Origin: a virus
Taxonomy: Duplodnaviria > Caudoviricetes
Virus record (IMG/VR): IMGVR_UViG_3300033068_001747
Strand: one strand, 5' to 3'
Length of the DNA: 64,000 nt
Shown here: positions 27,356-61,813 of the stretch, piece by piece
How positions within the stretch are numbered: position 1 is the stretch's first letter
Layout: each line of letters starts with the position of its first letter
The notes under the pieces: model-generated
Told to the model about the DNA's origin: nothing
Database searches by the model: none
What the model saw: the letters and a program-made list of their open reading frames with translations, nothing else
Program-made: the position numbers and the translations under genes

Positions 27356-27384
27356 AAAAAACCACTCAAATGAGTGGTTTTTTT
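27356..27384. terminator. Bidirectional intrinsic terminator
   Basis: aaaaaccactca-aa-tgagtggtttttt. Confidence 0.75.
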
Positions 27385-27724
27385 ATTTTACATACTTTGT
27401 AAGTATAAAGTCTCTTCGTATTGTCATTAGTAAATTAAACATATCTTCATCATCAGTTTTATAATACTTAATATGTTTATTGATAATATCTAAAGTTAAA
27501 TCATGCTTGTTATAATTTATCCAATCTTCTTTTATATAAAGTGGCATATTAGAAATATCACTAATCTTTTCTTTTTCTTCCTGAATGAAATAATAAAATT
27601 CGTCCTTTTCTAATATAATAGAGGTTAAACCCAAAATCCAATGATTTCCATAATCACTTAAAATAGATATGATTTTAAAATCACCAAAATTTGAACTAAA
27701 AGAATTTAATTCTAAATTATTCAT
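27383..27724 (-). CDS. Hypothetical protein with C-terminal RD-motif
   Basis: Ends IRRDFILTKYVK. Confidence 0.6.
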   Translation of the reverse strand: MNNLELNSFSSNFGDFKIISILSDYGNHWILGLTSIILEKDEFYYFIQEEKEKISDISNMPLYIKEDWINYNKHDLTLDIINKHIKYYKTDDEDMFNLLMTIRRDFILTKYVK

Positions 27725-28334
27725 TATTATAATTATCTAAAAATTTTCTTTCCTCTGGTGTAAGATTTTCAATCCCAACAGAACTAATTCTATCTAAAAT
27801 TTCATCAATATTGAATTTAACCGAATTTCTTTTCTTAATCTTTTCAATATCAGACATTTCTTCTTTCAATCCACCAAAATTACCTTTCTTTAGATCTTCT
27901 ACTTTAAGACCAAATTTTTTCTCAAACTCTTCACGAGAAAAAATCATACCCATTACATTCACAACATCATTTATTTCATGTTTATAGAAAATCTCTACAC
28001 CCATAATAATATCCTCAATCAATGTCTTCTCAGCAGAATCTGATGTATAAATACACTTATCACCTTTAAATACGGCAATATCCTTTCTATCCATCAAATA
28101 AACAATATTTATCGAACCAAGATTATCTAATTCAGTCATAACACTAACAGTGTTATTGATACGACTATTAAAACTAGTCTTATGTGTATAAATATTATCC
28201 AATATTCCTTGGAAAATATCATTTATTTCCTTTTTGTAATTTTTTTCTTGATAAATATCTAGAACCTTTCTTACTAAATTATTAAGAATATAACCTAAAC
28301 AAATACCACCAAGTAATATCATACTATATACCAT
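27717..28334 (-). CDS. Membrane-anchored protein with C-terminal DUF6576-like domain
   Basis: N-terminal TM; NIDEILDRISSVGIENLTPEERKFL. Confidence 0.7.
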   Translation of the reverse strand: MVYSMILLGGICLGYILNNLVRKVLDIYQEKNYKKEINDIFQGILDNIYTHKTSFNSRINNTVSVMTELDNLGSINIVYLMDRKDIAVFKGDKCIYTSDSAEKTLIEDIIMGVEIFYKHEINDVVNVMGMIFSREEFEKKFGLKVEDLKKGNFGGLKEEMSDIEKIKKRNSVKFNIDEILDRISSVGIENLTPEERKFLDNYNNE

Positions 28335-29478
28335 AAACTGATTTTCTAATTTTTACTAATAAACTATTTATAAACTTTTCATCTACCTTTTCTGGTAAAT
28401 TTGAAGCTTTAAACAAAGCATCTACTTCTTTAATTTCTTTCTCAACGTGATCGATCAAGGTTTGTAAATCTACTTCACCTCTTCTAATTGCAAGAAGTTC
28501 TTGTGCATTTGGTCTTTTAACTATAATACCTTTACCCTCTGCAATTTCTCGTGCCATATCCATCAATCTTCGACAATGTAACATGTTTTTACCATCAATT
28601 TGTTGACCGTGTGATTTAACATCAACCCATCTTTGAAGATTTCTCTTTTCTAACCATTCTTCATACTCTCTGTAGTCTTTACAGTGTTCAGAGTAACCAT
28701 CTTTGTTATAAACAATATTACACAATGATACTTCTCCTTTTGGAATTGAGGACAATCTTAATTGATTTGATATACCATAATTAGGAGTTTCTAAACCTTC
28801 ATCACCTACCTTAACTAAACCTTTGTAAAATCCTGGTTTATCATTGTAATAAAGTGCATAAACATCTTTGGCATGTGGAACATTGGCTAAACCAAACATC
28901 CTAACATCATATTTGATACCAAATAATTTATATAAAAATCCACCTTTATATTCAGAACCATATTTTGACTTCTTAAAAGGAATTGTTTTTTCACCGTCAA
29001 TAACATAACAGAAATCAAGTAAATCTTTACGAGTTACTTTATCTCTCTCCCAGTTTTGTTTTTTATTCTGACCTTTGGCTTTACCAATTTGAGCTCTAGC
29101 ATATCCACCAAATGAATTTGCACAGATTTTAGTAATAAACTTATCTTTATTCTCTAAGATTAAATCAAAGATAGGATCTTTATAAATAATACAATCTTCT
29201 GGAGTATTAAGTAATTCTAAAACTGTTGGATTATTACTAGCCAATAATTCTAAAAACCTACGTATCTCATAGATAACAATATCATTATTATCATCATTTA
29301 TTTGTTGTTTGTATTTAAAACCTAAAATATCATCCATTGGTTGTATAAATACACCAGCAAAGTCAGTATCGGATGTCTCTATATTAGTTCCATAAGCATG
29401 TGAACCCCTAATCACTAAGAAAAGTGGTATCGCACCTGGAGACCGTTCATTTATAAGTTGTAGTAATTGTTCTTTCAT
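28324..29478 (-). CDS. Pol-beta-family nucleotidyltransferase (RlaP/YcgL-like, RNA repair)
   Basis: GSHAYG...SDTDFAGVF, YEIRRF..L...NP..LELL, GKNMLHCRRL, LLAIRRG. Confidence 0.85.
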   Translation of the reverse strand: MKEQLLQLINERSPGAIPLFLVIRGSHAYGTNIETSDTDFAGVFIQPMDDILGFKYKQQINDDNNDIVIYEIRRFLELLASNNPTVLELLNTPEDCIIYKDPIFDLILENKDKFITKICANSFGGYARAQIGKAKGQNKKQNWERDKVTRKDLLDFCYVIDGEKTIPFKKSKYGSEYKGGFLYKLFGIKYDVRMFGLANVPHAKDVYALYYNDKPGFYKGLVKVGDEGLETPNYGISNQLRLSSIPKGEVSLCNIVYNKDGYSEHCKDYREYEEWLEKRNLQRWVDVKSHGQQIDGKNMLHCRRLMDMAREIAEGKGIIVKRPNAQELLAIRRGEVDLQTLIDHVEKEIKEVDALFKASNLPEKVDEKFINSLLVKIRKSVYGI

Positions 29479-29499
29479 CTTTATTATATAATTTTTTTA

Positions 29500-29507
29500 C
29501 AAATATA
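29500..29507 (-). promoter_or_regulatory. TAnnTTTG (TATATTTG) host-sigma promoter
   Basis: 21 nt upstream of the nucleotidyltransferase ATG. Confidence 0.6.
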
Positions 29508-29529
29508 GTGAAAAAAACCAAATGTTCAA

Positions 29530-30873
29530 CTATTTAAACTTCTTTTTTAATTCACTTAAATCTAATAGATACATATCCTTTGGATCAGTATCTTCTAATA
29601 TTTTAATTTCTTCTTTTTTAGCAGTGAAGTCTTGCTTCATTTTTTCAAATAATTCTTTTGTTAAAGAATAAATTGGCATTCTTAATAAATAATCAAATGA
29701 GTCATCTATTTTTTCTAACCCTAAATTTTCAATACCAACAACAATTTCTGTTTTAGATACATTATTTATCTTTAACTTCTCATCAAGAATCGCTTTAATA
29801 AATCTACCTCTATTACTTAGTATCTTTAAGTCTTTATTAAGTTTATCTAATGTATGTTGCTTTCTCACATTGTAATAAGCTAGTCTAAACTTAGTAAAAT
29901 ATTCAATAATCTCTTCGGATGTTTCAAATATCTTCAATTTACCATACTCATCAAGTGTTGTAAATATCTCAGTTGATGATTCTTCTAGTTTTAAAAGCTT
30001 TATTAAAGCAGTATCATCTAAACTTTCTAACGAAGCTCTATTAAACTTTATTGTATAGTCAACATTATCTTTACAATTATCATCATAAGAAACAATATCC
30101 TTATTATCAACTAGTTTATCCAATATTTCTTCATACTTTTCATATGTCATAGAAGGTGGTAATTCACTTATCTTAACAGTTGAAGTATTTACTTTTTGAA
30201 ATCTACCTCTTATAATCCATCTTTTAGGATTTTCTTTATCTTGTATGAATTCACCTGTAAACTCATTTAGAGAAGGTTTAATACTAGATAATTTTTTTCC
30301 CTCAATAACTCTCACACAACTATCAATAATGCTTTTAATGTCTCTATTTAACACATTAGAAGCAAATCCAACCGCAATTCCTGAGGAACCATTTAATAAT
30401 ACCGTTGGAATAATTGGTAAAAAGTATTTTGGTTCTATTGATTCACCTTCTTCTTCCTTATAATCAAGTAAGTCAAAATCTTTGTAAATCAATCTAAAGT
30501 TCTCACTTAATTTTGTCCCAATATATCTTGCCGCACCAGGTTGTGGAGAACGCAATGAACCAAATTGTCCGTCTTCTTCTAAAAGTGGTGCATTATTCTT
30601 AAATTTTTGTGCCATTGTAACAATAGCATTTTCTAATGAAGTATTACCGTGATGATAAAAAGCATCAGATGCAACTTTACCCGCTAACTGGAATACTTTT
30701 ATATTTTTCTCAGTACCATTTCTCCAAATTTGATTAGAGATATGAATGATTTTTCTCTGTGTTGGTTTGAATCCATCAACAACAGATGGTATTGCTCTTC
30801 CTTCAATTGAGTACATTGCGAACTCTTTATACTCATTTGATAAGAAATCGGAAATCGTTTTTTCTGTCATCAT
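29530..30873 (-). CDS. Type IIA topoisomerase subunit A (T4 gp52-like)
   Basis: RAIPSVVDGFKPTQRK, YHHG, GQFG, AARY (catalytic Tyr), NGSSGIAVGF; start re-assigned to 30873. Confidence 0.93.
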   Translation of the reverse strand: MMTEKTISDFLSNEYKEFAMYSIEGRAIPSVVDGFKPTQRKIIHISNQIWRNGTEKNIKVFQLAGKVASDAFYHHGNTSLENAIVTMAQKFKNNAPLLEEDGQFGSLRSPQPGAARYIGTKLSENFRLIYKDFDLLDYKEEEGESIEPKYFLPIIPTVLLNGSSGIAVGFASNVLNRDIKSIIDSCVRVIEGKKLSSIKPSLNEFTGEFIQDKENPKRWIIRGRFQKVNTSTVKISELPPSMTYEKYEEILDKLVDNKDIVSYDDNCKDNVDYTIKFNRASLESLDDTALIKLLKLEESSTEIFTTLDEYGKLKIFETSEEIIEYFTKFRLAYYNVRKQHTLDKLNKDLKILSNRGRFIKAILDEKLKINNVSKTEIVVGIENLGLEKIDDSFDYLLRMPIYSLTKELFEKMKQDFTAKKEEIKILEDTDPKDMYLLDLSELKKKFK

Positions 30874-30914
30874 AATTTTATATATAGTAAAAAATAATCT
30901 TTGTTTTTTCCACA

Positions 30915-31586
30915 ATGAATAAACTTAAAAAATATAATGACTTTCTAATCTTAGAAAAATATGATAAAAACATCACAAACTATCTAAAAAGTATTGGTGT
31001 AACAGATAAAGAAGAACTTAAAAAACAAGTTTCTTTATCTAAACAAGGTCACTTAGGTACTTACCTACACTCTAAAGGTGATAAATTTACTTTTGGTATA
31101 CTTAAAGCTATCTTTAAAGATGCAATAGATGCAAAAAAGAAAACCGCATTAAAGAAAAATATCTTTAATTTATTACCTGTTGCAATTCCTTTATCGTTAG
31201 CACCATATTTCCCTATTTTAGCACTTGTTGGTACAGTATTTGGTTCATCTAGATTTGTACATAAGATATTTGATACAATATTTGATTATTTAGAACCACA
31301 ATCTAAATATGTAGATTTCCTAAAGAAAACTATCGATACTTATATGATGTTACCAGAAGGTAATGTCCCTTTAAAAGATAGATTCTCTAGAGCATTTGTA
31401 GTATCAGATAGATTGATTGAAGCACTTAAACCTGAAGTAGTAAATTCATTTACAACTTTTATAAGTGAGAAGATGGATAAAGAGGATGATGATAAACTAG
31501 TACCCGATCACTATATTGAAAACGAACTAAAGATGTATCTTAATGATAACTTTGATATAGATCCGGAAATACCTTTAAAGAAATAG
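30915..31586 (+). CDS. Tagged hypothetical membrane protein
   Basis: MNKLKKYNDFLILE; central hydrophobic hairpin. Confidence 0.7.
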   Translation: MNKLKKYNDFLILEKYDKNITNYLKSIGVTDKEELKKQVSLSKQGHLGTYLHSKGDKFTFGILKAIFKDAIDAKKKTALKKNIFNLLPVAIPLSLAPYFPILALVGTVFGSSRFVHKIFDTIFDYLEPQSKYVDFLKKTIDTYMMLPEGNVPLKDRFSRAFVVSDRLIEALKPEVVNSFTTFISEKMDKEDDDKLVPDHYIENELKMYLNDNFDIDPEIPLKK

Positions 31587-31595
31587 AAATAAATT

Positions 31596-32551: not shown

Positions 32552-32580
32552 AAAGAGACTCAATTGAGTCTCTTTTTTTT
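32550..32580. terminator. Bidirectional intrinsic terminator
   Basis: aaaaagagactc-aatt-gagtctctttttttt. Confidence 0.8.
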
Positions 32581-33811
32581 ATTCAAATTCAGATTGTAAT
32601 ATCTTAACTACTTCTCTTATTGTTTCTTCTTCTAAATCAGTTTGTTTAACAATTAAATTAAAGTCTGCTTTTAAAACACTTTTTGCAGTATCATAACCAA
32701 CTTTTTTAAATTCATCAATAATCCAACCATCAATTTCATCGGAGAAATCTTCTAGTAAAACATCTTCATTGTGTTCAACATCAGAAAAGACATTTATTTT
32801 ATAACCAGTTAGTTTGCTTGCCAATTTAATGTTTAAACCACCTTTACCAATAGCCAAAGAAATTCCTTCAGAAGGAACTACAACATTTGCAGTTTTTTTC
32901 TCTTCGTTTATCTCTGCATTTGGTTTACTTTGTCCTAATGCTCTCATTATATACAATGATTTATTAGTAGTATAAGTGATAACATCAATATTCTCATTAT
33001 TAAGTTCTCTTACAATAGAGTGAATTCTACTTCCCTTAACACCTACACAAGTACCAACAGGATCAATTCTATCATCATAAGACTCAACAGCAACTTTTGC
33101 TTTATATCCAGGTTCTCTAACAACTGCTTTAACAGTAATTAAACCATCGAATACCTCAGGTATTTCAAGTTCAAATAATTTCTCTAAAAATTTATTTGAT
33201 GTTCTTGATAAAGTCATATAAAGTTTACCATTTTCAATAGAAACATTTTGTAAGATTGCTCTAATTGAATCTCCTTTTCTAAAGAAGTCACCAGGTATCT
33301 GTTCTGTTTTAGGTAAAACAAATTCATTACCTTCATCATCTGTTACGATAACTTCTTTTCTTAAAATTTGGTAAACTTCACAAGTGAAAATCTCACCTTC
33401 TCTATCTTTATATTTTTTGTATAAGTTTTCTTTACCTAAATCCAAAATTTTAGATTTAAGTACTTGACGAATTGATGAAATTGAACGTCTACCAAAATCA
33501 CCAATTTTAATTTCATCAGCAAATTCTTCACCAACTTCAAAACCAGATTCAATTTTATTTACATCAGTAAATCTAATATGAATATTCTCATCAAATTCAT
33601 CATAACTGTCTTCAACTACAAGTCTATTTCTCCAAATTTCTAAATCTCCTTTATTAGGGTTCACAATAATATCAAAGTTTTCAGATGAACCATATTTTTT
33701 AACAATAATAGTTTTAAAAACTTCTTGCATTACTTTAATCATTGACTCTTTGTCAATACTTTTTACGTCTTTTAACTCAGAAAAAGACTCTATTAGATTT
33801 ATATTATCCAT
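32579..33811 (-). CDS. nusA: Transcription termination/antitermination factor NusA (Bacteroidetes type)
   Basis: FGRR, S1 domain, REPGYKAKVAV, DPVGTCVGVKGSRI, AIGKGGLNIKLA; C-terminal DTAKSVL...TDLEEETI. Confidence 0.95.
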   Translation of the reverse strand: MDNINLIESFSELKDVKSIDKESMIKVMQEVFKTIIVKKYGSSENFDIIVNPNKGDLEIWRNRLVVEDSYDEFDENIHIRFTDVNKIESGFEVGEEFADEIKIGDFGRRSISSIRQVLKSKILDLGKENLYKKYKDREGEIFTCEVYQILRKEVIVTDDEGNEFVLPKTEQIPGDFFRKGDSIRAILQNVSIENGKLYMTLSRTSNKFLEKLFELEIPEVFDGLITVKAVVREPGYKAKVAVESYDDRIDPVGTCVGVKGSRIHSIVRELNNENIDVITYTTNKSLYIMRALGQSKPNAEINEEKKTANVVVPSEGISLAIGKGGLNIKLASKLTGYKINVFSDVEHNEDVLLEDFSDEIDGWIIDEFKKVGYDTAKSVLKADFNLIVKQTDLEEETIREVVKILQSEFE

Positions 33812-34726: not shown

Positions 34727-35149
34727 CTATTTTAGAACTTCACTAATTTTATAATCTCTAAAACTCTGAACATCAATGTCTGTAGGTTTTACTTCGTAAA
34801 ATGTTAAAGAAATCATTTTCATATACTTTTCAGTTTCTTCTTCATTTGCATCTGGATGTAGAATGTTTTCAGTATCACCCCAACCACTTTTTTTAATAGG
34901 TCCATACTTTTCAACTAAAGACTCATTAAACTTCTCATACTCTTCAATATCAACATTTAATATGTCTTCTAAATCATATGAATAATAACTAAGTGAACTT
35001 GTTTTAAACTCCTGTTTATTCAACTCCTTTACCTTTGCTTCTGCATCTTCTTTTGAGAAACAAATCAATTCTGGATTTCCTCCTTCTGATTCTGAATAGA
35101 TATTATCATCATATTCATACCCTTTTTTTACAATTACGTGTGCTTTCAT
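34727..35149 (-). CDS. Hypothetical protein with C-terminal RD-motif
   Basis: Ends FRDYKISEVLK. Confidence 0.65.
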   Translation of the reverse strand: MKAHVIVKKGYEYDDNIYSESEGGNPELICFSKEDAEAKVKELNKQEFKTSSLSYYSYDLEDILNVDIEEYEKFNESLVEKYGPIKKSGWGDTENILHPDANEEETEKYMKMISLTFYEVKPTDIDVQSFRDYKISEVLK

Positions 35150-35152
35150 ATT

Positions 35153-35653
35153 TTATTTTAATAAATCGTTAATTTTTTTATCTCTAATGTATTGTGTTTT
35201 TAAATCTGCTAATGACATATCCCAGTCATTTTTAATGTCATTTATTCTTGATAAATTTAAGAATTGTTCTTGATAGTTTTTCAAATCCAAACTCTGAGTG
35301 TCCTCTTTATATAATCGATAAACATAATCAAAATCTTTCTCATTATAGTAATTACCATCAATAATAAATATAATTGGTAAGTCTGTTACTTCACGAATTG
35401 AACTTAATAAATATTTTATATGACCATCAGGAACTACTGTTAGTAATAAATCAACTCTAAATAAAAAGTTTGGCAATATTTCAGATATATCTGTTGATGT
35501 GATGGCAATTTTTGAGCATTTAACATGAATATTACTATTTACACCATCTAGAAATAAACAATTATGACCCATAAGATCATAATAATCTATTAGTTTACTA
35601 ACTACATAATTATTTTCATTTAGAAATAAATTTACTTTACCAATGTCTAACAT
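35153..35653 (-). CDS. Hypothetical protein with C-terminal RD-motif
   Basis: Ends IRDKKINDLLK. Confidence 0.65.
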   Translation of the reverse strand: MLDIGKVNLFLNENNYVVSKLIDYYDLMGHNCLFLDGVNSNIHVKCSKIAITSTDISEILPNFLFRVDLLLTVVPDGHIKYLLSSIREVTDLPIIFIIDGNYYNEKDFDYVYRLYKEDTQSLDLKNYQEQFLNLSRINDIKNDWDMSLADLKTQYIRDKKINDLLK

Positions 35654-36374: not shown

Positions 36375-37112
36375 ATGGATTTTGGAAAAGATTTTAGAAA
36401 ATATGCTTTAAGTGAGGGTATTTCTTCTATGAATTTACATTACTTTGAAAAAGGATTAGTAGAGAATAGTATGACACCATACATTCTTGAAGAAAGAGAA
36501 ATGAGGGTAACGCAGATGGATATTTTTAGTAGACTTATGCGAGATCGTATCCTATGGGTTGCTGGTGTTGTAAACACACAAATGTCAACTGTAGTTCAAG
36601 CTCAATTGATGTATTTAGATTCAGTTGAAAATAAAGACATCACAATGCACGTTGATTCACCAGGTGGTTCAGTATTAGCTGGATTAGGTATGGTTGATGT
36701 TATGAGATATATCAACTCCGATGTTGCAACAATCAATACTGGTATGGCCGCATCAATGGGTTCTATTCTTTTATCATCAGGAACTAAAGGGAAACGTTCT
36801 TCTTTGAACTTCTCTAAAGTAATGATTCACCAAGTTTCTTCAGGTGCATCAGGACACGTTGAAGATAATCGTATTTCTCAAATGGAATCAGAAAAATACA
36901 ACTACGTTCTTTTCAAAATGTTAGCTGAAAATAGTGGTAGACCTTTTGATGAAGTTTTAGAAAGTGCTAGAAGAGATAAATGGTTAAACTCACAAGAAGC
37001 TTTAGACTTTGGATTTATTGACGAAATTATCATCACTGATAAAGCAACACCAATTTCAACTTATCTTGAAGGCTTTGATGATTACTACACAAAAGAAATC
37101 TTAAAGAAATAA
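36375..37112 (+). CDS. clpP: ATP-dependent Clp protease proteolytic subunit
   Basis: DIFSRLMRDRI, DSPGGSV, AASMG (Ser), MIHQ (His), RDKW; Bacteroidetes-like N-terminus. Confidence 0.95.
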   Translation: MDFGKDFRKYALSEGISSMNLHYFEKGLVENSMTPYILEEREMRVTQMDIFSRLMRDRILWVAGVVNTQMSTVVQAQLMYLDSVENKDITMHVDSPGGSVLAGLGMVDVMRYINSDVATINTGMAASMGSILLSSGTKGKRSSLNFSKVMIHQVSSGASGHVEDNRISQMESEKYNYVLFKMLAENSGRPFDEVLESARRDKWLNSQEALDFGFIDEIIITDKATPISTYLEGFDDYYTKEILKK

Positions 37113-37142: not shown

Positions 37143-38534
37143 TTATGAACATTCTGGACAATCAACTTGACCACCATCACATACATCACAAAAGACTGAA
37201 CCACCACCGTGACATACAGGACAAGGCTCACTACTAGCATCCCCACCAGAACCATCACAATTAGGACAATCAATTTCCGAAGCCCCATTACATTCTGGAC
37301 AATCAACTTGACCTTCACCTGAACACACAGGACAAGGTTCATCATCATCATAAGGACCACCATCAGTATCAGTTAGTTCAATATAACCACTAAAAGTACG
37401 ATTAGATATAACACCAGTTTTTGGATTATAATACTTCATAGTATCCATATAAGGATAAGGACTATATTCACCTTTCTTTAAAGTAATAACTACCTCTGAT
37501 TCTCCATGATCTAATTCTACACCGTCTTGAACCAATGGGGTTGTTGAACTGTAATTCTGAGATTCTTTATGATAATATCCTTTAGAATCACAATACTCTA
37601 TAAATAAAAGTATATCTGGTGTTCTAATTATATAAATTCTATCCATAATACGTCTACCTTCATCATCTAACCAAAGAATTGCTCTACCAGCAATCTTTGA
37701 AGAATCTTCTTCACTCAATAAAATTACCATTGATACTCTTTCTGGATTATTGACATAAATATCAAAGAAATCTTGACATCTATCATAACGCATACAAGAT
37801 CCGCCTAAAGATCCAGACTCTGCCTCATAATTATCTACCAAATAACAATGTTTTATATCCTCTCCTTTAATTTCTTTAAATCTTGAGAAGACATCAGTTT
37901 CCATTTGTAAAACCTTCTTATATTGATCAACAAATTTTTCAATTTCTACATCAGTAAACTTTTCACCTAATTTTGTTAGAAATGCTCTAATAAATCTTCC
38001 AACATTCACATCAGTATTTCTTATTGATGCGAAATCTTTAACCAAATTACTCTTAGGTGTAATACAATCAAAAGTATTTGAACCTGAACCAAATTGGAAA
38101 ACAACCATTGTTTCCCCATTATTATACATATACTCCCAAACACCACTAGGAGATATTTCAGATAGTTCTTCTAAAGTAAAAATTTTTGTAATCTTACCTC
38201 TTTCCCCATTTCTAGGTTCTCCAAAATTGTGTATAAATCCTCTTGCTGCCTTGGATAAGTTATCATAAATAGCACCCTTACTCAAAACCTTATATTCTAC
38301 TTTATCAATCTTATCTTGTGGTTTAAAAAACACACTGTCAATTTTATCTTTATTTACATCAATATAGTTTCTATCAATGTCTTTATCTTCACCTCTAAGT
38401 GAAATAAGTTTATTTGCAATAGGAGAATCTATTTTATTTAAGACTTCCATAAAATTAGTAGTAAATACAATTTTAGCTTCTAAAATCAATTCTAATTTAC
38501 TTTCTGTTATATAATCATAGTAGTTTGTAATCAT
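37143..38534 (-). CDS. Paralog family B: conserved SCM/GRAILW/MDRIY/PYMDT domain plus 6 CxxC DnaJ-type Zn motifs
   Basis: GSCMRY, GRAILW, MDRIY, YPYMDTMKYY; CxxCxGxG repeats. Confidence 0.75.
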   Translation of the reverse strand: MITNYYDYITESKLELILEAKIVFTTNFMEVLNKIDSPIANKLISLRGEDKDIDRNYIDVNKDKIDSVFFKPQDKIDKVEYKVLSKGAIYDNLSKAARGFIHNFGEPRNGERGKITKIFTLEELSEISPSGVWEYMYNNGETMVVFQFGSGSNTFDCITPKSNLVKDFASIRNTDVNVGRFIRAFLTKLGEKFTDVEIEKFVDQYKKVLQMETDVFSRFKEIKGEDIKHCYLVDNYEAESGSLGGSCMRYDRCQDFFDIYVNNPERVSMVILLSEEDSSKIAGRAILWLDDEGRRIMDRIYIIRTPDILLFIEYCDSKGYYHKESQNYSSTTPLVQDGVELDHGESEVVITLKKGEYSPYPYMDTMKYYNPKTGVISNRTFSGYIELTDTDGGPYDDDEPCPVCSGEGQVDCPECNGASEIDCPNCDGSGGDASSEPCPVCHGGGSVFCDVCDGGQVDCPECS

Positions 38535-40079: not shown

Positions 40080-40106
40080 AAAAACCCATCTATTAAGATG
40101 GGTTTG
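40080..40106. terminator. Intrinsic terminator
   Basis: aaaacccatct-atta-agatgggttt. Confidence 0.65.
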
Positions 40107-40335
40107 TAAATATTGCTCTTATTTTTCTCTTTCTAATAACTTGCCTAGAAAGTTTATAGTAATTTTTCTGAATACCAGAATATAAAGAAGTAAAGTCCAA
40201 ATTGATAGGTTCAACACCGGATGAATAACCACCAGATACTAAACTTCCAGTAAGACGAGGTTTCTGAGTGGTAACTACTCTGTTACGACGAGCTTCTAAT
40301 AAATCCTGATATATCTTTTCTAATTCTTCTTCCAT
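40093..40335 (-). CDS. Small hypothetical protein, variant C-terminal motif
   Basis: IRKRKIRAIF near the C-terminus. Confidence 0.55.
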   Translation of the reverse strand: MEEELEKIYQDLLEARRNRVVTTQKPRLTGSLVSGGYSSGVEPINLDFTSLYSGIQKNYYKLSRQVIRKRKIRAIFTNPS

Positions 40336-50900: not shown

Positions 50901-52298
50901 ATGAACAATAAATTATCAAAATACGAACAATATCTTTTAGAACAAGATATACAAATGTTATCAGAAGCAAAAATTGTATTCGACGACAAATTTAATGCAC
51001 TCCTTAAAAGAATAAAAACACCAATTTCTAAAAATTTAAGAATGTTAAATGGAACTGAAGTTGATACAAATTATAATTATATCACATTTGATGTAGATAA
51101 AGAAGATAAAGTTTTCTTTATTCCAGATGATAAAGCCAAAAAAGTAGATGATCCATACACATTAAAAAAATCAGATATGAATATTGGTAGATTTGTAAGA
51201 GCAATTCTAACTAAAGCAGGACACGAAGTTAATAATAAAGAACTAGAAGAATTTGTAAGTAAATATAAAGCATCTATTCTAGTAGAAAAAGAATCTTTTA
51301 AAAGATTTGAAATAGTTAAAGGTGATGATATAAAATACTGGTATAATCTTAATCAGTATTATAGAGGAGATGGTACATTAGGTTCTTCTTGTATGAGATA
51401 TGCAAAATGTAGAGACTTTTTAGACATATACTCAAGAAATCCTGAAAGATGTTCTTTGATAATCTTAAAATCAAAAGGAGACGATTATAAAATAACCGGT
51501 AGAGCTTTACTTTGGTTAGATGATAAAGACAGAAAATTTATGGATAGAGTATATATTGAAGATTCTTCAGATACTCAACTATTTATTGATTATGCAATTG
51601 ATAACGGATTCTATTATAAGAAAAATCAAACTTATCAAATAGGTGATCCTATCATGTTTAATGGACAAGAACTAACTAAAGAAGATAGTTGGATTTACAT
51701 TACTTTAGAAAACGGTGGAGAATTTAGCAAATATCCTTATATGGATACTGTCAAATATTATACTCCTTATAGAAATCTACTAACAAATAACTGGACAGAT
51801 TCATACGAATATGAACTAACCGATACCGAAGGTGGTAATGGTTCTTGTTCTAACTGCGGTGGTTCGGGAGAAGTAGAATGTGAAGATTGTTGTGGTTCAG
51901 GAGAATACAGATGTTGGAGATGTGAAGGTGAAGGTGAAGTAGAATGTAGAGAATGTGATGGTTATGGAGAAGTAGATTGCCATGTTTGTGATGGTCATGG
52001 AGAAGTCGAATGTCCAGTTTGTGATGGTTATGCAGAAGTAACTTGTCCTCAATGTGATGGATCTGGTGAGTTTGAAGAAGGTCCTTGTGACAATTGTGAC
52101 TCATCAGGTAAAATACCTTGTTATAATTGTGAAACTGGTCAACTTACTTGCCCAGAATGTGAAGGAAGTTGTAAAGAAGAATGTGAAGATTGTGAAGGTA
52201 AAGGACTAGAAGAATGTACCTCTTGTGACGGAGATGGAACAACAGAGTGTCAAGAGTGTGGTGGAGATGGAAGAATAATATGTTATGAATGTAGTTAA
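50901..52298 (+). CDS. Paralog family B with 14 CxxC Zn motifs
   Basis: GSSCMRY, GRALLW, MDRVY, YPYMDT; 14 CxxC. Confidence 0.75.
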   Translation: MNNKLSKYEQYLLEQDIQMLSEAKIVFDDKFNALLKRIKTPISKNLRMLNGTEVDTNYNYITFDVDKEDKVFFIPDDKAKKVDDPYTLKKSDMNIGRFVRAILTKAGHEVNNKELEEFVSKYKASILVEKESFKRFEIVKGDDIKYWYNLNQYYRGDGTLGSSCMRYAKCRDFLDIYSRNPERCSLIILKSKGDDYKITGRALLWLDDKDRKFMDRVYIEDSSDTQLFIDYAIDNGFYYKKNQTYQIGDPIMFNGQELTKEDSWIYITLENGGEFSKYPYMDTVKYYTPYRNLLTNNWTDSYEYELTDTEGGNGSCSNCGGSGEVECEDCCGSGEYRCWRCEGEGEVECRECDGYGEVDCHVCDGHGEVECPVCDGYAEVTCPQCDGSGEFEEGPCDNCDSSGKIPCYNCETGQLTCPECEGSCKEECEDCEGKGLEECTSCDGDGTTECQECGGDGRIICYECS

Positions 52299-52851: not shown

Positions 52852-53358
52852 ATGATAACAATAATAGCTGCAGCAGGAGAAAATAACTCTCTAGGTAAAG
52901 ACAACGACTTAGTTTGGCACTTACCAGACGACTTTAAAAGATTTAAACAACTTACATCAGGTAATTATATACTTATGGGTAGAAAAACATTTGAAAGTTT
53001 TCCTAAACCATTACCTAATAGAAAACATTTAATTATAACAAGACAGGAAAACTATTCTGTACCTGAAAATTGTTTTGTTTTTGATAGTATTTCTAAAGCA
53101 TTAGATTTTATTCCATTTACTGGAACTATTGAAAAACCAACTACAGATGTTTGGATAATTGGTGGTGGAGAAATCTATAAACAATCAATGGAAATAGCAG
53201 ATAGAATTGAACTAACAAGAGTACATTCCGAATTTGAAGCAGATACTTTCTTTCCAGAAATTGGTAAAGAATGGGAATTAGTAAATGAAGAACATCATAG
53301 TTCTGATGAAAAACACAAATACAATTTTACATATTTAACTTATGACAAAAGAATATAA
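52852..53358 (+). CDS. folA: Dihydrofolate reductase
   Basis: LVWHLPDDFKRFK, MGRKTFES, PLPNR, IIGGGEIY, ADTFFP. Confidence 0.95.
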   Translation: MITIIAAAGENNSLGKDNDLVWHLPDDFKRFKQLTSGNYILMGRKTFESFPKPLPNRKHLIITRQENYSVPENCFVFDSISKALDFIPFTGTIEKPTTDVWIIGGGEIYKQSMEIADRIELTRVHSEFEADTFFPEIGKEWELVNEEHHSSDEKHKYNFTYLTYDKRI

Positions 53359-53602
53359 AAAACAAATTGTAAAGGATTATCTTATCAAGCTAGAAAAGAA
53401 TCAAGCTAGAATTATAATAAATGGAATTGATGATTTTAGTGATCATCCTTTTAGACCTTGGGTTAAAATATTTTATAGTGTTATAAAAAGAAAAAATAAA
53501 TTATACACTAAAGTAAATAAAGTATGGTCTGAATATGGGACTTTTGATAGTTTATTTATCTCTGAAATTAGAGACCAACGATTAAATGATTTAGGTGTTT
53601 AA
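53342..53602 (+). CDS. Small protein with C-terminal RD-motif
   Basis: Ends IRDQRLNDLGV. Confidence 0.6.
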   Translation: MTKEYKKQIVKDYLIKLEKNQARIIINGIDDFSDHPFRPWVKIFYSVIKRKNKLYTKVNKVWSEYGTFDSLFISEIRDQRLNDLGV

Positions 53603-54291
53603 CGACGACCGTAATTTTTCACTTGTTGTTGAGTTCTATTATCTTTATCAGATGCTGCAAAATATTTAATTACATTTGGATCTTTAAAATTATCCATCAG
53701 TTTACTATTTCTTAGACTATGATCTCTAAGATCTAATCTTTTCATATGATGATAATCTCCAACGATTCTTTTAATATTCAATTCTGGATTTTCTTTATAT
53801 AACCAATAAGGAACTTTAACATAGAAAAACCCTTCTTTTTCAGGAACTTCTCCTAAAATAGCAATTTGTGAAGTTGGCAAAGTACCTTTATGAAAAGTAA
53901 CAGAGTAAGGTCTAGCATTATCTATAAAAGTTGCAGTATCTGCAGCAAATTCTTTAATATTTAAAATTTCAATTGACTTTTCATTTTGTTTAGTAATAAA
54001 GTAAGCTGCAATTATTGCTCTTTCATCTGCCAAATAAGTAGCTTTATTAAAATCAAACTCTATATCGTCTCTATAGATATGTTTATCCAATGGTTTATAC
54101 TCTGCATAAAACTCGGTAGGTTTTGTATACCACTTATGTTCTGGCTTATCAATTCTATAATAGGAAATATAACCTGGCTTATCAGGATTTAATATAAATA
54201 TTTTCTGACCTTTATCATTGATCCATTTTGTACCAAATTCTGGTAACTCCTGTGTTGATTCAAATATCTTAAACTTTTTTAGAAACTGCAT
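53599..54291 (-). CDS. Tagged hypothetical protein
   Basis: MQFLKKFKIFES at 54291; TTAATATATA at 54311-20. Confidence 0.65.
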   Translation of the reverse strand: MQFLKKFKIFESTQELPEFGTKWINDKGQKIFILNPDKPGYISYYRIDKPEHKWYTKPTEFYAEYKPLDKHIYRDDIEFDFNKATYLADERAIIAAYFITKQNEKSIEILNIKEFAADTATFIDNARPYSVTFHKGTLPTSQIAILGEVPEKEGFFYVKVPYWLYKENPELNIKRIVGDYHHMKRLDLRDHSLRNSKLMDNFKDPNVIKYFAASDKDNRTQQQVKNYGRR

Positions 54292-54342
54292 TATAAAAAT
54301 TACTTTTTTGTATATATTAAAAATTAAATGTAACTTTGTAAA

Positions 54343-54624
54343 ATGAGAAATAAATTTGACCTTAATAAACCTGTTTATCATAAATCTTATGGTAAAATGA
54401 CTATCGAACGATACTTAGAAGCCAATTTAGATGAACCAGATACAGAAAATCAATATGATTGTGAGTATGGTTATGAAAATATCTGGGTAGGTGATAGACC
54501 AAAATTTAAAAGAAATACATCACTTTTTAAAGAATCAGATTTAATGTCAGAAGAAGATTACAACGCTTGGTTACTATCAAATAAAAGAGAAGAAACATTG
54601 AAAAATATATTAAAAGATACCTAA
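54343..54624 (+). CDS. Small protein with C-terminal RD-motif
   Basis: KREETLKNILK; TAACTTTG at 54331-38 ends 4 nt before the ATG. Confidence 0.65.
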   Translation: MRNKFDLNKPVYHKSYGKMTIERYLEANLDEPDTENQYDCEYGYENIWVGDRPKFKRNTSLFKESDLMSEEDYNAWLLSNKREETLKNILKDT

Positions 54625-54656
54625 TTTTAATATATAATGAAAAATAAATTCCTACG

Positions 54657-55040
54657 ATGAAAAAAACACTAATCAATTGCAAGATTACTTATCAACAAGA
54701 ATCACTTAAAAACACTTTAACTGCAATTTTTTATGAACATTCGAGGAATAAATTTATTAAACTTCATGGTAAAATCTCAACAGAACTAACTCAAGATTTA
54801 CATCACAGAAGTTCACACATTTCACAACTAGATTTTACCAACTTCAAAGAAGATGTAGAACCAACAGAAGAAGAATTAGTAAAAATTTATCAAGAACTAC
54901 TTTCAAAGAAAAATTCTGGTAACTCTTTAAGATATAAAGTATCTAAACTTGAAGACTTTGAAATAAAAGCATTTGAACTTTTATCAGAAAAATTAACTTC
55001 ATATTTTAGAAATGAAAAATTAAATTCTATTGGAGTTTAA
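54657..55040 (+). CDS. Hypothetical protein with C-terminal RD-motif
   Basis: Ends FRNEKLNSIGV. Confidence 0.65.
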   Translation: MKKTLINCKITYQQESLKNTLTAIFYEHSRNKFIKLHGKISTELTQDLHHRSSHISQLDFTNFKEDVEPTEEELVKIYQELLSKKNSGNSLRYKVSKLEDFEIKAFELLSEKLTSYFRNEKLNSIGV

Positions 55041-55066
55041 ATTTTTTATTTCGTATATTTGTTATT

Positions 55067-55444
55067 ATGGAAGAAATAATAGGAAATATGGAACATACAG
55101 AAGTGAGTAGAACACTTATTGACCGAATACTTGGTCGAAAAAAAGACATTGATAAGATTGTTAAAGTTAGAAAACAAATCATTACAATTAAAAAAAGTTT
55201 TAATGATGCTAAACTAACTAGACGTGTAGGTACATTTGATAATGTATATTATAAAATGTTTACCTTAATGAACGAAAGTGTAATGGATGAAAAATTAGTT
55301 TATATGAACTTAGGCGGTGAAATACTATTAAAGAAACTAACTGATACAAGAGACGAACTTGTCGAACTTTTGAAGAGTGTCATCGATATATCAGATATAC
55401 AGAAAGAGATTAGAGAAGATAAACTTAAATCAATTGGAATATAA
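55067..55444 (+). CDS. Hypothetical protein with C-terminal RD-motif
   Basis: Ends IREDKLKSIGI; TATATTTG at 55054-61. Confidence 0.65.
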   Translation: MEEIIGNMEHTEVSRTLIDRILGRKKDIDKIVKVRKQIITIKKSFNDAKLTRRVGTFDNVYYKMFTLMNESVMDEKLVYMNLGGEILLKKLTDTRDELVELLKSVIDISDIQKEIREDKLKSIGI

Positions 55445-55773
55445 TGGATAAAACAAGTGAAATAGTTTTCAACGGAAAGTTTGAAAAAGGTATGATCTTT
55501 CAAGAAATGTTGACATTTTGGCTAGGTATATTAGATATAACCGATGATGGTGTAATAATTACATTACAAGGTAATCGTATTAAGGAAATGAAACTAAAGA
55601 AATATACCAAAGATGAACTTATTACTTTTATGAAGTACGAAACAATTGATAATAAGTGTTGGTTAGATTATAGAAGTACTGAACCTGATAGAGTACGAGA
55701 TTGGTTTATACAAAAAGTAGAACACGATTCAATAGAAAATCGAAGAGATATAAAAATTGATTTATTGACATAA
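55444..55773 (+). CDS. Hypothetical protein with C-terminal RD-motif
   Basis: Ends RRDIKIDLLT. Confidence 0.6.
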   Translation: MDKTSEIVFNGKFEKGMIFQEMLTFWLGILDITDDGVIITLQGNRIKEMKLKKYTKDELITFMKYETIDNKCWLDYRSTEPDRVRDWFIQKVEHDSIENRRDIKIDLLT

Positions 55774-56751: not shown

Positions 56752-56753
56752 AA

Positions 56754-57312: not shown

Positions 57313-57313
57313 T

Positions 57314-57762: not shown

Positions 57763-57780
57763 ATACTATATATTAAGATT

Positions 57781-57963
57781 TTATTTTAATAACTTATCAA
57801 TCTTTTGATCCCTAATATAAGCTAAACTATTTCTATAAATTTTTTCAATTGTATTTTGTGGATCATAACCATACTTCTGTAAATCCATAATTTGTTCTCT
57901 TGTTAAAGGTAAAGTAATACCATTACAAACTACCATATGGTTATCATCAAACTCTATTTTCAC
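57781..57963 (-). CDS. Small protein with C-terminal RD-motif
   Basis: Ends IRDQKIDKLLK. Confidence 0.6.
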   Translation of the reverse strand: MKIEFDDNHMVVCNGITLPLTREQIMDLQKYGYDPQNTIEKIYRNSLAYIRDQKIDKLLK

Positions 57964-58763
57964 TATTTCTCTTTATTTTTATATATGGAATATGGATCCC
58001 ATTTCTCATCATACCAAAAAGTTCTACCTGTATTATCTTTACAAGATAAACCTTTCTGATAAAAAACCCACTTCTTAAATTCTTCATAATCAGAATCAAA
58101 TGGATTAGTCCAATCTGACAACTGACCACCATTTAAGGTATAAGCTTTAATCGGAATATCTCTACAAAAGTCTAATATATCTGGATTCTCCATAATAATA
58201 GTTCTAGCACATTCAAATGGGTTTACATTTATGTAATAAAGAATTGTAGAACGTAAATAATTACCAATTCCATTGAAATACTTTTGATCTAAAAGAGCTT
58301 CACAAATTGGTTTATCAAATGCTTTTAGTTTTAAGTTTACTAAAACATTTCTTTTAAATTCATCAAATTGTTTAGTAGGATCTGGTCCACGTTTTACACC
58401 AGTAAAAGCACCTAATCGGTATTTTGGTCCCATATATGAACCATAAAGTAATAAAGAATTACCATCATCTGTATCTAACCTCATTCTAACAAACTTGGTA
58501 TCATTCCAATTTTCAGTGGGAACAAATTTCCAATTTCCAGACATACCCATAAATACAGAGAAGTCTAATGTTTTTGTATCATTTTTAGTTTTTAACTGTA
58601 GTTCTTTACCAAAAGAATTGGCGACTACTTCAAAATTTTCAATCAACTCTGAGTCGATTGGGTTATTACCTTTTTCAACGTGATATAATTTTGTAAACTT
58701 TCTTTCTTTTGAATGATGATTTATATAATCACTCATAATTCGTAACTCAGGTCCTTCAGGCAT
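57963..58763 (-). CDS. Fpg/Nei DNA glycosylase, NEIL1-like (zincless finger)
   Basis: MPEGPE, GKEL, GMSG, H2TH LLDQKYFNGIGNYLR, GRTFWY, no C4 zinc finger. Confidence 0.9.
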   Translation of the reverse strand: MPEGPELRIMSDYINHHSKERKFTKLYHVEKGNNPIDSELIENFEVVANSFGKELQLKTKNDTKTLDFSVFMGMSGNWKFVPTENWNDTKFVRMRLDTDDGNSLLLYGSYMGPKYRLGAFTGVKRGPDPTKQFDEFKRNVLVNLKLKAFDKPICEALLDQKYFNGIGNYLRSTILYYINVNPFECARTIIMENPDILDFCRDIPIKAYTLNGGQLSDWTNPFDSDYEEFKKWVFYQKGLSCKDNTGRTFWYDEKWDPYSIYKNKEK

Positions 58764-58930
58764 ATTCTTTTTATTTTTTCTCTTCGTTTATTTTTTCTCA
58801 TATTTTTCTTAGCTAACTTCTTTAATCTATAAGCCATAACATGATAAGACGATAATGTTTCATCATCTAAATATGTTTTATCACCTATCAGATCAAGATG
58901 ATCAATTATTACTGGTTTATATTCTTTCAT
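58733..58930 (-). CDS. Small basic protein, variant C-terminal motif
   Basis: KRREKIKRICLK. Confidence 0.5.
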   Translation of the reverse strand: MKEYKPVIIDHLDLIGDKTYLDDETLSSYHVMAYRLKKLAKKNMRKNKRREKIKRICLKDLSYEL

Positions 58931-59373
58931 TTGAATAAATCTTTTATTATAAAATCTCTTTTAATACTTAATGGTAATAAGTTTATAATTTGTTTTTTAC
59001 TAACTATCTTAGCGGCTGTACCAAAACTACCATTAAAGTTATATAATTCGGTTAAATCATTTCTCAATGAGAATCCATATGCAGTTTTCTTAGTTTTATT
59101 AAAATTATCTTGTAAATAAACCTTATCAACTACATTATTTCTAACCATAATCCAAATTATATATTGTTCATTAAATACCAATTTCCAATGTGAATCTTGT
59201 TTTGGATGTATTTTTTTTTCTTTTACCTGAACATACCTACCTGTTTTATTATCAATTACATGCTTAGTAGTATGATCATCCAGTATCATAGCTTCTCCAT
59301 CATTATATGGATTTGGCTTATGAAAAGGTATTTTAGTAAATCCTAACTCTCGTAACTTTTTAGTTGCATTCAT
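58927..59373 (-). CDS. Hypothetical protein with C-terminal RD-motif
   Basis: Ends KRDFIIKDLFK; TATATTTG at 59378-85 ends 4 nt before the ATG. Confidence 0.65.
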   Translation of the reverse strand: MNATKKLRELGFTKIPFHKPNPYNDGEAMILDDHTTKHVIDNKTGRYVQVKEKKIHPKQDSHWKLVFNEQYIIWIMVRNNVVDKVYLQDNFNKTKKTAYGFSLRNDLTELYNFNGSFGTAAKIVSKKQIINLLPLSIKRDFIIKDLFK

Positions 59374-59392
59374 AAAACAAATATAGTAATAA

Positions 59393-60170: not shown

Positions 60171-60184
60171 ATACTATATATAAA

Positions 60185-60212
60185 TAAACTTGTCCTACCT
60201 TTTTAATATAAA
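60185..60212 (+). promoter_or_regulatory. TAAAC-N17-TATAAA promoter
   Basis: Upstream of trxB. Confidence 0.45.
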
Positions 60213-60226
60213 TTAAAAAAAGATGT

Positions 60227-61156
60227 ATGGAAAAAGTTAAATGTATTATTATAGGATCAGGACCTGCAGGGTATACCGCCGCAATTTATGCAGCAAGAGC
60301 AAATATGAAACCTGTTTTATATCAAGGGATGCAACCTGGTGGACAACTAACAACAACTAATGAAGTTGAAAATTATCCTGGATTTCCAAATGGAATAACA
60401 GGACCAGAAATGATGCAACAATTTGAGGAACAAGCTAAACGATTTGGAACAGATATAAGAGATGGTTTTGTAACTAAAGTAGATTTTAGTGGAGACATTA
60501 AAAAAGTCTTTGTAAACGAAAAAGAAATACATTGTGATACTGTTATCATATCTACAGGAGCCACTGCTAAGTACTTAGGATTAGAATCAGAACAAAAATA
60601 CCTTACTTTAGGTGGAGGTGTTAGTGCTTGTGCTATTTGTGATGGATTCTTTTACAAAGGTTTAGATGTAGTTGTAGTTGGAGCAGGGGATTCTGCTTGT
60701 GAAGAAGCTCACTACTTATCAAAAATCTGTAATAAAGTAACTATGTTAGTAAGAAGTGATTTTAGAGCTTCTAAGATTATGGTTGATAGAGTTAGAAATA
60801 CTGAGAATATAGAAATACTTTTAAATACTGAAACTATAGAAGTTTGTGGTGACGGTCAAGTAGTAAATAAAATCATTGTTAAGAATAGTAAAACTGAAGA
60901 AGTATCTGAAATACCTGCAGCTGGATTCTTTTTAGCGATTGGTCATAAACCAAACACAGATATATTTAAAGATTATTTAAAATTAGATTCTGTTGGATAT
61001 ATTGTTACTGAACCAGGAAGTACAAAAACAAATGTAGCAGGAGTATTTGCGGCAGGTGATGTTGCGGATCATGTTTATAGACAAGCTATTACTGCTGCAG
61101 GAACAGGTTGTATGGCCGCTTTAGATGCAGAAAGATACTTAGCAAGTTTGGAATAG
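60227..61156 (+). CDS. trxB: Thioredoxin reductase
   Basis: GSGPAGYTAA, GGQL, CAICDG, GAGDSA, GVFAAGDV, RQAITAAG.G. Confidence 0.96.
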   Translation: MEKVKCIIIGSGPAGYTAAIYAARANMKPVLYQGMQPGGQLTTTNEVENYPGFPNGITGPEMMQQFEEQAKRFGTDIRDGFVTKVDFSGDIKKVFVNEKEIHCDTVIISTGATAKYLGLESEQKYLTLGGGVSACAICDGFFYKGLDVVVVGAGDSACEEAHYLSKICNKVTMLVRSDFRASKIMVDRVRNTENIEILLNTETIEVCGDGQVVNKIIVKNSKTEEVSEIPAAGFFLAIGHKPNTDIFKDYLKLDSVGYIVTEPGSTKTNVAGVFAAGDVADHVYRQAITAAGTGCMAALDAERYLASLE

Positions 61157-61160
61157 TAAA

Positions 61161-61610
61161 ATATATTTTGTAATTTTACATAAAGGCTCGTTCGCACCCA
61201 TGCACATAGGCCACTTAAATATAATTGAAAAAGCTGAAAGAATTTTCGGTAAAGGAAATGTTATAGTTGCAATTGGAGTAAATCCCGATAAAAACTATTT
61301 AGAAAGACAAGATCCAAAAGAACTTGAAAAGACTATAAATCGTCCTGTTATTACTTATGCTAAGTTTCTACACGAACTTGTAGAAGATTATGAGAAAGAA
61401 GGTTTAAAAGTAGTTATAATCAGAGGATTAAGAAATGGTACTGATTTAGATTATGAAGTAAATCAATTTAGATTTATAAACGACTTTAAGAAAGATATAA
61501 ACGTAGTTTATATTACTTGTGACCAAGAATTTGAACATATTTCTTCTTCTGCAATTAGAAAGATTGAACAATTTGGTGGACCAGATATGGTAAAAAAATA
61601 TCTTTTATAA
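61161..61610 (+). CDS. coaD: Phosphopantetheine adenylyltransferase-like protein; start codon uncertain
   Basis: GSFAPMHIGH, IIRGLRN..D..YE, HISSSAIR; homology extends upstream of the first ATG (61200). Confidence 0.7.
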   Translation: MYFVILHKGSFAPMHIGHLNIIEKAERIFGKGNVIVAIGVNPDKNYLERQDPKELEKTINRPVITYAKFLHELVEDYEKEGLKVVIIRGLRNGTDLDYEVNQFRFINDFKKDINVVYITCDQEFEHISSSAIRKIEQFGGPDMVKKYLL

Positions 61611-61813
61611 TGGTAGATTATATCGGTTGGTGTGAAGAATGTGCGGAGTTTAAAACTATAGTGATAGATACTGAAAAAAATTATAAAACTTCATATCACG
61701 AAGCAACATTTATGTGTAGTGAATGTACACAAAAACAAATAATAGAGAAAAGAGATAAAAAATTAAACCAGTTACTAAAACGTAGCTGGTTTGATAAATT
61801 ATTTAGAAATTAG
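61610..61813 (+). CDS. Small Zn-ribbon protein with RD-motif
   Basis: CEEC...CSEC; KRDKKLNQLLK. Confidence 0.6.
   Translation: MVDYIGWCEECAEFKTIVIDTEKNYKTSYHEATFMCSECTQKQIIEKRDKKLNQLLKRSWFDKLFRN

Follow-up and report, generated by a model that had tools for sequence, protein, structure and literature searches.

Short terminal elements shared by otherwise unrelated proteins are known from several systems. SHOCT (PF09851) is a short C-terminal helical module found on many unrelated proteins, with no enzymatic role. The capsid targeting sequence (CTS) of phage T4, carried by IPI-III and Alt, is a terminal peptide of about ten residues that serves unrelated proteins purely as an address. Clp degrons and tethers, such as ssrA, the ClpX-binding tail of SspB and the MuA tail, are short C-terminal peptides on unrelated proteins that are read by an AAA+ protease. 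PIP-box and related sliding-clamp peptides lie at the extreme C-terminus of many clients, and encapsulin cargo-loading peptides, Dot/Icm type IV secretion signals and poxvirus PRANC/F-box tails each join a large unrelated accessory set to one machine through one C-terminal element. Here we describe a short C-terminal peptide helix built around an invariant Arg, hereafter called the tag, in a 64,000-nt stretch (the window; bases 32001-96000) of the 132,473-bp virus record IMGVR_UViG_3300033068_001747. About one in seven of the window's proteins is tagged, and about one in five in the complete 634-kb relative LR745206.1. The analysis demonstrates a motif that is C-terminal in position, selected as a peptide, portable across folds and restricted to one phage lineage. 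No account of such a tag was found in the literature searched, and it looks like an apparently undescribed address label.

Alignments anchored on the Arg give the consensus [hydrophobic]-[S/T/Q]-x-[E/hydrophobic]-[I/L/Y]-R-[D/E/N]-x-K-[I/L]-x-x-[I/L]-[L/G]-x, followed by zero to six residues and the stop. About 14 positions are informative, including a hydrophobic residue four positions before the Arg, a small S, T or Q three before it and often a Glu two before it; farther upstream there is no conservation. Like SHOCT, the tag starts with S/T-x-x-E-aromatic, has a central Lys and closes with an aliphatic pair, but it has an invariant Arg where SHOCT has none, spans about 14 positions against 28, and is confined to one huge-phage lineage, where it occurs on up to one fifth of the genes. 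The CTS is N-terminal, limited to a few late proteins and cut by the prohead protease, whereas the tag is C-terminal and occurs on hundreds of proteins, with an enrichment downstream of promoter boxes of the host (early-like) type. The sequences and lengths of the encapsulin, Dot/Icm and PRANC elements are unlike the tag, and no shell, secretion coupling protein or ligase adaptor was linked to it.

A C-terminal motif selected as a peptide

A sequence-only reading of the window had listed 15-17 proteins ending in variants of this peptide, each located by the low coordinate of its open reading frame (ORF). Six-frame pattern matching recovered all of them, with 17 of 17 ORFs carrying a listed peptide at or near the C-terminus. 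In 13 of the 17 the distance from the invariant Arg to the stop is 9-12 residues, most commonly exactly 10, and the motif is followed by 10 extra residues in two ORFs, 41560-41937 (-) and 61610-61813 (+). The two peptides listed as variants, in 40093-40335 (-) and 58733-58930 (-), form a separate basic subtype, R-[KR]-x-K-I-x-x-I-[FC]. Applied to the 84 genes contained entirely in the window, the strict pattern R-[DEN]-x-[KRQT]-[LI]-x-x-[LIV] matched 10 of the 336 slots at C-termini and 2 of the 16,800 internal ones, with 0.06 C-terminal matches expected (p = 1.4e-19), and the motif thus passes the check for enrichment at C-termini over internal helices. A simple gene call on the whole 132-kb record gave 187 ORFs, about 25-27 of them tagged and nine or ten of these outside the window. 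The 15-17 listed proteins are therefore real, but the list falls well short as a total, since tagged proteins number in the hundreds lineage-wide.

Codon usage places the constraint on the peptide and not on the DNA. When the codons of 25 instances are aligned on the Arg, every conserved position shows synonymous or conservative variation (Asp as GAT or GAC; aliphatic residues as TTA, ATT, ATA, CTT, CTA or TTG), all three stop codons are used after the tag, and the DNA downstream is not conserved. Terminator-like hairpins stand directly 3' of several tagged genes, in place of another gene. A promoter, downstream translation-initiation region, terminator or recombination site overlapping gene ends could be suspected from the A/T-rich tag codons and from the many tagged genes that abut the next gene. 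However, the variation just described, the retention of the tag where a hairpin and not a gene comes next, and the lack of signal from reversed and shuffled protein controls (see below) make such a nucleotide-level explanation hardly credible, and we regard it as largely refuted.

The 166-aa protein of the acidic type encoded at 35153-35653 (-) has 86 homologues, some of them on contigs of 620-650 kb, and all full-length ones keep the tag nearly letter for letter. Across 39 orthologues, down to 48% identity, the last 16 residues are 81% identical to the query and the remainder 57%. In its AlphaFold2 model (predicted local distance difference test, pLDDT, 83.5; 39-sequence alignment), a body whose Foldseek matches are RecA/KaiC-type alpha/beta domains is followed by a beta hairpin and a C-terminal helix at residues 148-165. 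An 84-aa tagged protein encoded outside the window was modeled (pLDDT 76.9; 12 sequences) as a five-stranded barrel, for which the best matches were weak and to SH3 domains, followed by a helix at residues 66-82. The C-terminal helix proposed from the sequence is present in both models, each time after a beta strand, and its occurrence behind a RecA/KaiC-like body and an SH3-like barrel indicates that at least two different folds carry the tag.

The S/T-x-x-E start of the tag and its L-G-[I/V] or I-L-[N/D/K] ends may be read as classical helix caps, and three aliphatic residues share one face of the helix with the Lys and the invariant Arg. An amphipathic C-terminal helix with basic residues could also target the membrane, as the C-terminal helices of MinD or FtsA do. 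In helices of that type a strong hydrophobic face is flanked by basic residues and conserved acidic ones are absent, whereas the tag has just three aliphatic residues and two or three acidic ones, and its position 2 (the residue after the Arg) is mostly acidic or Asn. Lipid binding needs no invariant Arg followed by Asp/Glu, and some tagged proteins already have a transmembrane-like segment. We consider membrane targeting very improbable.

Distribution and dialects of the tag

LR745206.1, an uncultured phage of 634,780 bp and 29% GC, was reached through a weak DNA match, and its whole genome was used. Its 988 called ORFs include 111 that match the strict pattern, about 180 that match an intermediate one and 214 that match the loosest, a bare R-x3-aliphatic-x2-aliphatic skeleton near the C-end, and the Arg shows a sharp peak 10-11 residues before the stop. 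The scan with a hidden Markov model (HMM) suggested by the sequence-only reading bears this out in both directions. A profile built from LR745206.1 tags gave 18 matches in the 132-kb record, of which 15 lay no more than 8 residues from the C-end, with none in reversed and two in shuffled proteins (none C-terminal); the converse profile, from the tags of the 132-kb record, gave 81 matches in LR745206.1, 72 of them C-terminal, with none in reversed and shuffled controls.

For the wider distribution, an HMM built from the 25 tag instances of the 132-kb record was used in six-frame searches. At E ≤ 1 it recovered its own 25 tags and 72 in LR745206.1. At E ≤ 0.1 it gave 38 matches in LR756502.1 (642 kb), nine in LR756504.1 (636 kb) and one in Bacillus phage G (498 kb); LR756508.1 (484 kb) and Campylobacter phage CP220 had none. 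The bacterial controls comprised five Bacteroidota genomes, with zero to one match per genome at E ≤ 1, and a sample of 201 Bacteroidia genomes, with one match in total at E ≤ 0.05. The tag was above chance level in none of LR756508.1, Bacillus phage G, CP220 and the 206 Bacteroidia genomes. This distribution indicates that the tag does not arise as a by-product of AT-rich coding and is not a motif of the host, and the absence of a signal above chance in the 5 + 201 Bacteroidia genomes ruled out host mimicry. The phage NusA of the 132-kb record is 57-60% identical to Bacteroidota NusA. Genomes of 634, 636 and 642 kb have been assigned to the Mahaphage clade, with Bacteroidetes as predicted hosts (Al-Shayeb et al., 2020; PMC7162821), and the three tagged huge-phage genomes are probably these.

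When the last 16 residues were searched without bias for enriched gapped triplets of residue classes, the motif was recovered from both the 132-kb record and LR745206.1, and 400 kb of LR756508.1 yielded no comparable signal. The same search in 400 kb of LR756504.1 returned a variant with a basic residue after the Arg; in this genome 116 of 627 ORFs bear F-x-T-x-x-E-[Y/H]-R-K-x-[I/K/R]-I-x-x-L-[L/I], with the Arg usually nine residues from the end. Of these 116 tags, 74 have a basic residue at position 2 and 18 an acidic residue or Asn. The balance is reversed in LR745206.1 (155 acidic or Asn and 22 basic, n = 214) and in the 132-kb record (20 and 2, n = 27). In LR745206.1 the basic tags, a minority, occur on very small proteins (median 57 aa); they have Phe at position 9 and are followed by a short tail. 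Subtype is kept between orthologues: the LR745206.1 orthologues of both window variants are basic. For a swap of dialect between LR745206.1 and LR756504.1, a single pair of tagged orthologues was available, both of them acidic.

The tagged proteins had also been called early. The sequence TAnnTTTG, which we take to be the Bacteroidota -7 promoter element, occurs within 90 nt upstream of 36% of tagged and 15% of untagged transcription units in LR745206.1 (p = 2e-5), and of 44% and 18%, respectively, in the 132-kb record (p = 0.04). This enrichment lends modest support to the label, suggesting that tagged genes may be transcribed early by the host polymerase.

Tagged proteins and their possible partners

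The bodies that precede the tag had been described as unrelated, and this description holds. An all-against-all BLASTp comparison of 25 tagged proteins from the 132-kb record yielded one significant pair, and after removal of the tag 27 bodies formed 27 clusters in this record and 209 formed 207 clusters in LR745206.1. In LR756504.1, 116 bodies formed 87 clusters, with a few families of five to nine members. Two membrane-like segments and one Zn ribbon are present among the tagged proteins of the 132-kb record, in agreement with the membrane and Zn-ribbon bodies proposed earlier. Searches against Pfam and PHROGs gave nothing above cut-offs for the 25 proteins, nor did Pfam for 10 of the largest tagged proteins of LR745206.1. 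With a median of 105-115 aa, compared with 141-165 aa over all ORFs, tagged proteins are small, and their bodies range from about 25 to more than 700 residues. The genes occur within arrays of short genes at many places in the genome. A homologue in LR745206.1 is present for 8 of 27 tagged proteins of the 132-kb record and for 89 of 160 untagged ones, so tagged proteins are less conserved. Some homologues of tagged proteins lack the tag. In addition, two tagged LR745206.1 proteins, encoded at 460435-460686 (-) and 207176-207907 (+), match internal parts of larger untagged LR756504.1 proteins (83 aa against 764 aa and 243 aa against 563 aa), and it looks as if fragments of larger genes may have been given a tag. 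Taken together, the homologues without a tag and these mini-proteins indicate that the tag has been gained and lost.

These comparisons bear on whether the tag is simply a remnant of ancestry or a generic structural cap, in which case one vast, diverging paralogue family would have kept its last helix for folding, with no partner. Arrays of adjacent small tagged genes do resemble tandem expansions, LR756504.1 has true paralogue families of five to nine tagged members, and the 132-kb record has its one paralogous pair. Common ancestry fits poorly, however, with different folds in two tagged proteins, with homologues both with and without the tag and with the range of body lengths, and a folding cap does not need conserved charged surface residues. 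We judge this explanation decidedly improbable.

A helix of 14 residues cannot be a domain by itself, and the Arg, Asp/Glu and Lys at its conserved positions are surface-type residues that no common body can constrain. The simplest account of charged surface residues and one aliphatic stripe that stay constant over about 200 unrelated families, specific to a lineage and with genome-wide dialects, would be docking. We favor, as an evenly balanced call, a portable C-terminal docking or address helix that is read by one shared partner. The hydrophobic face of the helix, flanked by Arg and Lys, would be laid into a groove of that partner, or perhaps of two partners given the acidic and basic subtypes. 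The partner would probably be phage-encoded or lineage-matched, and could thereby bring many different proteins to the same place or machine. Its clients would be hundreds of small, fast-evolving, mutually unrelated accessory proteins in one lineage of huge (~630-640 kb) Bacteroidota phages, most of them probably made early from host-type promoters, and the outcome of docking might be localization, regulation or timed turnover.

Several points weigh against this docking helix. Both subtypes occur in each genome, which weakens the dialect argument for a single co-evolving reader. The pLDDT of the tag helix is only fair in the AlphaFold monomer models (~74-89), and the helix may therefore pack on its own body and not be free. 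Self-BLAST of proteins of at least 350 aa in two genomes detected no internal repeats, and hence no scaffold built from repeats; a scaffold with repeated docking domains was ruled out as the reader by this comparison. Finally, a short terminal helix on diverse proteins can be an oligomerization element, as proposed for SHOCT.

That last point leads to the main rival explanation, a SHOCT-like helix for self- or hetero-oligomerization, through which tagged proteins would form dimers or tetramers or pair with one another, with no separate reader. SHOCT offers a precedent for a short amphipathic C-terminal helix on diverse bodies, the tagged sub-family F-I-T-L-E-D-aromatic-R-... resembles the I-L-T-x-E-E-F...K..L-L of the true SHOCT of LR745206.1, and tagged proteins of 35-60 aa are unlikely to fold alone. 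Yet the Pfam SHOCT model misses every tagged C-terminus even at E ≤ 10, and membership of SHOCT was rejected on this basis. At the same threshold PF09851 finds one true SHOCT protein each in LR745206.1 (274847-274927, -) and LR756502.1 (299055-299132, -), in open frames of 342 and 374 aa that are distinct from the tagged set, and none in the 132-kb record; one sub-threshold SHOCT_2 match (E 0.007) was seen among the 25 tagged proteins. The SHOCT spacing is aromatic-x3-K-x2-L-L; in the tag an additional residue separates the Lys from the final aliphatic pair, which shifts the helical phase. Fourteen residues are short for a stand-alone coiled coil, and independent self-association would not fix Arg, Asp/Glu and Lys over about 200 unrelated families. 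We take oligomerization seriously but consider it unlikely. A complex prediction for two unrelated tagged proteins together, with a score of 0.01, speaks neither for nor against any of these readings.

For a docking helix, one known type of reader is the sliding clamp. The PIP-box spacing polar-x-x-aliphatic-x-x-hydrophobic-hydrophobic corresponds to [D/E/N]-x-K-[I/L]-x-x-[I/L]-L in the tag. The PIP-box itself, Q-x-x-[L/I/M]-x-x-[F/Y]-[F/Y], differs in that the tag has D/E/N for Gln and I/L/G for the aromatic residues, and the invariant Arg lies outside the PIP pattern. We know of no precedent for hundreds of clients of one sliding clamp. No DNA_pol3_beta match was found in five huge-phage records, the complete tagged genomes among them, in a search in which the bacterial positive controls matched, and a phage-encoded beta clamp is an unlikely reader on this result.

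A second candidate reader is the proteolysis machinery of the phage. The sequence-only reading had noted ClpP and ClpS, and both are indeed encoded in the window, ClpP at 36375-37112 (+; Pfam CLP_protease, E 4e-53) and ClpS at 24963-25247 (-; Pfam ClpS, E 5e-20). The ClpS model had no match in the Bacteroides control genome. Outside the window, at 100747-102795 (-) of the record, lies the gene for a 682-aa ClpA/B-like ATPase with two rings. About 40 residues precede the first of these (D1), which indicates that the ATPase has no Clp_N domain. ClpS normally docks on the Clp_N domain, the one missing from this ATPase.

In a specific version of docking, the tag would be a degron or tether to this Clp machine (the N-domain-less ATPase, ClpP and ClpS), for timed removal of early accessory proteins. 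Such a role would be consistent with the presence of all three components, with the position of the ClpP gene among tagged genes in the window, and with the enrichment of host-type promoter boxes at tagged units, as early genes would show. The free C-terminal position is also shared, since the tag must sit within about six residues of the C-end (a tail of 0-6 residues), like threading degrons. On the other hand, the tag-free LR756508.1 also has a homologue of the Clp ATPase, and the Clp kit therefore does not follow the tag in its distribution. Sequence resemblance is lacking as well: known C-terminal Clp degrons such as ssrA are floppy, non-polar and unstructured tails, whereas the tag is a capped, charged helix that ends in L-L-K, I-L-D/N or L-G-I and not in an L-A-A-type non-polar terminus or a tether consensus. 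Marking one fifth of the proteome for degradation would also be costly. We regard the degron as improbable.

The same genome carries a second, N-terminal tag, M-K-x-[L/I]-K-x-[F/Y]-[E/D]-x-F, on 15 genes in the 132-kb record and 38 in LR745206.1. Window examples are 4754-5347, 5354-5932, 14513-15043, 15043-17679, 18378-18875, 18879-19457, 21276-21863 and 30915-31586, among others. These genes mostly encode larger proteins, the Clp ATPase among them, and ATAAGGAA is enriched upstream of them. No gene in the 132-kb record, and three in LR745206.1, have both tags. The N-terminal tag, as M-K-x-L-K-x-F-E-x-F, resembles the T4 CTS and is a closer analogue of it than the C-terminal tag.

In what are probably three of the four largest phage genomes reported in 2020, roughly one sixth to one fifth of the ORFs encode proteins with nothing in common but the tag helix, and almost all tagged proteins are ORFans with no Pfam or PHROG match. 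If one reader serves all the tags, it would provide a functional handle on hundreds of unknown genes. The tag also offers a simple sequence criterion by which the accessory or early proteome can be recognized in metagenomic contigs of huge phages, and a testable case of short linear motifs spreading over unrelated proteins in a virus of bacteria, a process that is well known in eukaryotic viruses and barely documented in phages. Should it be a docking or degradation tag, it might become a compact orthogonal tag for Bacteroidota. A more far-reaching version, which we hold to be quite unlikely, would make the tag a proteome-wide peptide code of the largest known phages, in acidic and basic dialects, by which a single reader encoded by the phage would recognize the products of one fifth of the genes, namely the early and rapidly evolving accessory set. 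The marked proteins would be gathered at a common site or cleared at a set time by the N-domain-less Clp ATPase with ClpP, and the N-terminal tag would mark a second, mutually exclusive set.

Tagged genes of the window and their neighbors

The tagged ORFs of the window are taken here in order of position. The 113-aa ORF at 27383-27724 (-), of the acidic type, has its Arg codon at 27413-27415, 10 residues before the stop, and a terminator-like hairpin comes next. Beside the RecA/KaiC-like gene, 34727-35149 (-; 140 aa, acidic type) has its Arg codon at 34757-34759, again 10 residues before the stop. The 80-aa ORF at 40093-40335 bears the basic-subtype tag R-K-R-K-I-x-x-I-F with a four-residue tail. 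The acidic-type ORF 41051-41584 (-; 177 aa) has a hydrophobic, membrane-like segment near residue 44, and in 41560-41937 (125 aa) the residues added after the tag place the Arg 20 residues before the stop. On the other strand, 45473-45838 (+; 121 aa) has a tag ending in L-G-I, a Schellman-type helix cap, with the Arg codon at 45806, and 45835-46224 (+; 129 aa) has its Arg nine residues before the stop (codon at 46195).

Five further plus-strand ORFs stand close together. The tags of 53342-53602 (86 aa; Arg codon at 53570), 54657-55040 (127 aa; 55008) and 55067-55444 (125 aa; 55412) end in L-G-V, I-G-V and I-G-I, respectively. The Arg of 54343-54624 (93 aa) is 12 residues before the stop (codon at 54586), and that of 55444-55773 (109 aa) is nine residues before it, with a terminator-like hairpin next. 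DNA near-identical to 53342-55773 occurs in public wastewater, aquatic and bioleaching metagenome runs from several studies, and no RNA run is among the public runs listed.

The 51-aa ORF at 57781-57936 (-; 60 aa from a GTG at 57963) consists of tag for about one third of its length. Its LR745206.1 orthologue is tagged, as is that of the acidic-type 58927-59373 (-; 148 aa), in which the Arg is 10 residues before the stop. The 65-aa ORF at 58733-58930 carries a weak basic-type variant, R-R-E-K-I-x-x-I-C followed by eight residues; it overlaps the start of its neighbor, and the gene call is uncertain. The Zn-ribbon-like ORF at 61610-61813 (67 aa) has CxxC at residues 8 and 36.

Among other genes of the window, three encode proteins of about 465 aa with a C-terminal CxxC...CxxC zinc finger, at 37143-38534 (-), 38588-40018 (-) and 50901-52298 (+). 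Two of the three adjoin ClpP, and none had a Pfam match. Their Atlas look-alikes form virus-only clusters; in one of these, 30% of the members have the DnaJ-like zinc finger BSD2_CRD. The window also encodes NusA (32579-33811, -), a topoisomerase IV/gyrase A-type subunit (29530-30873, -), a 1372-aa tail sheath (10334-14452, -) and the large terminase (22571-24715, +).

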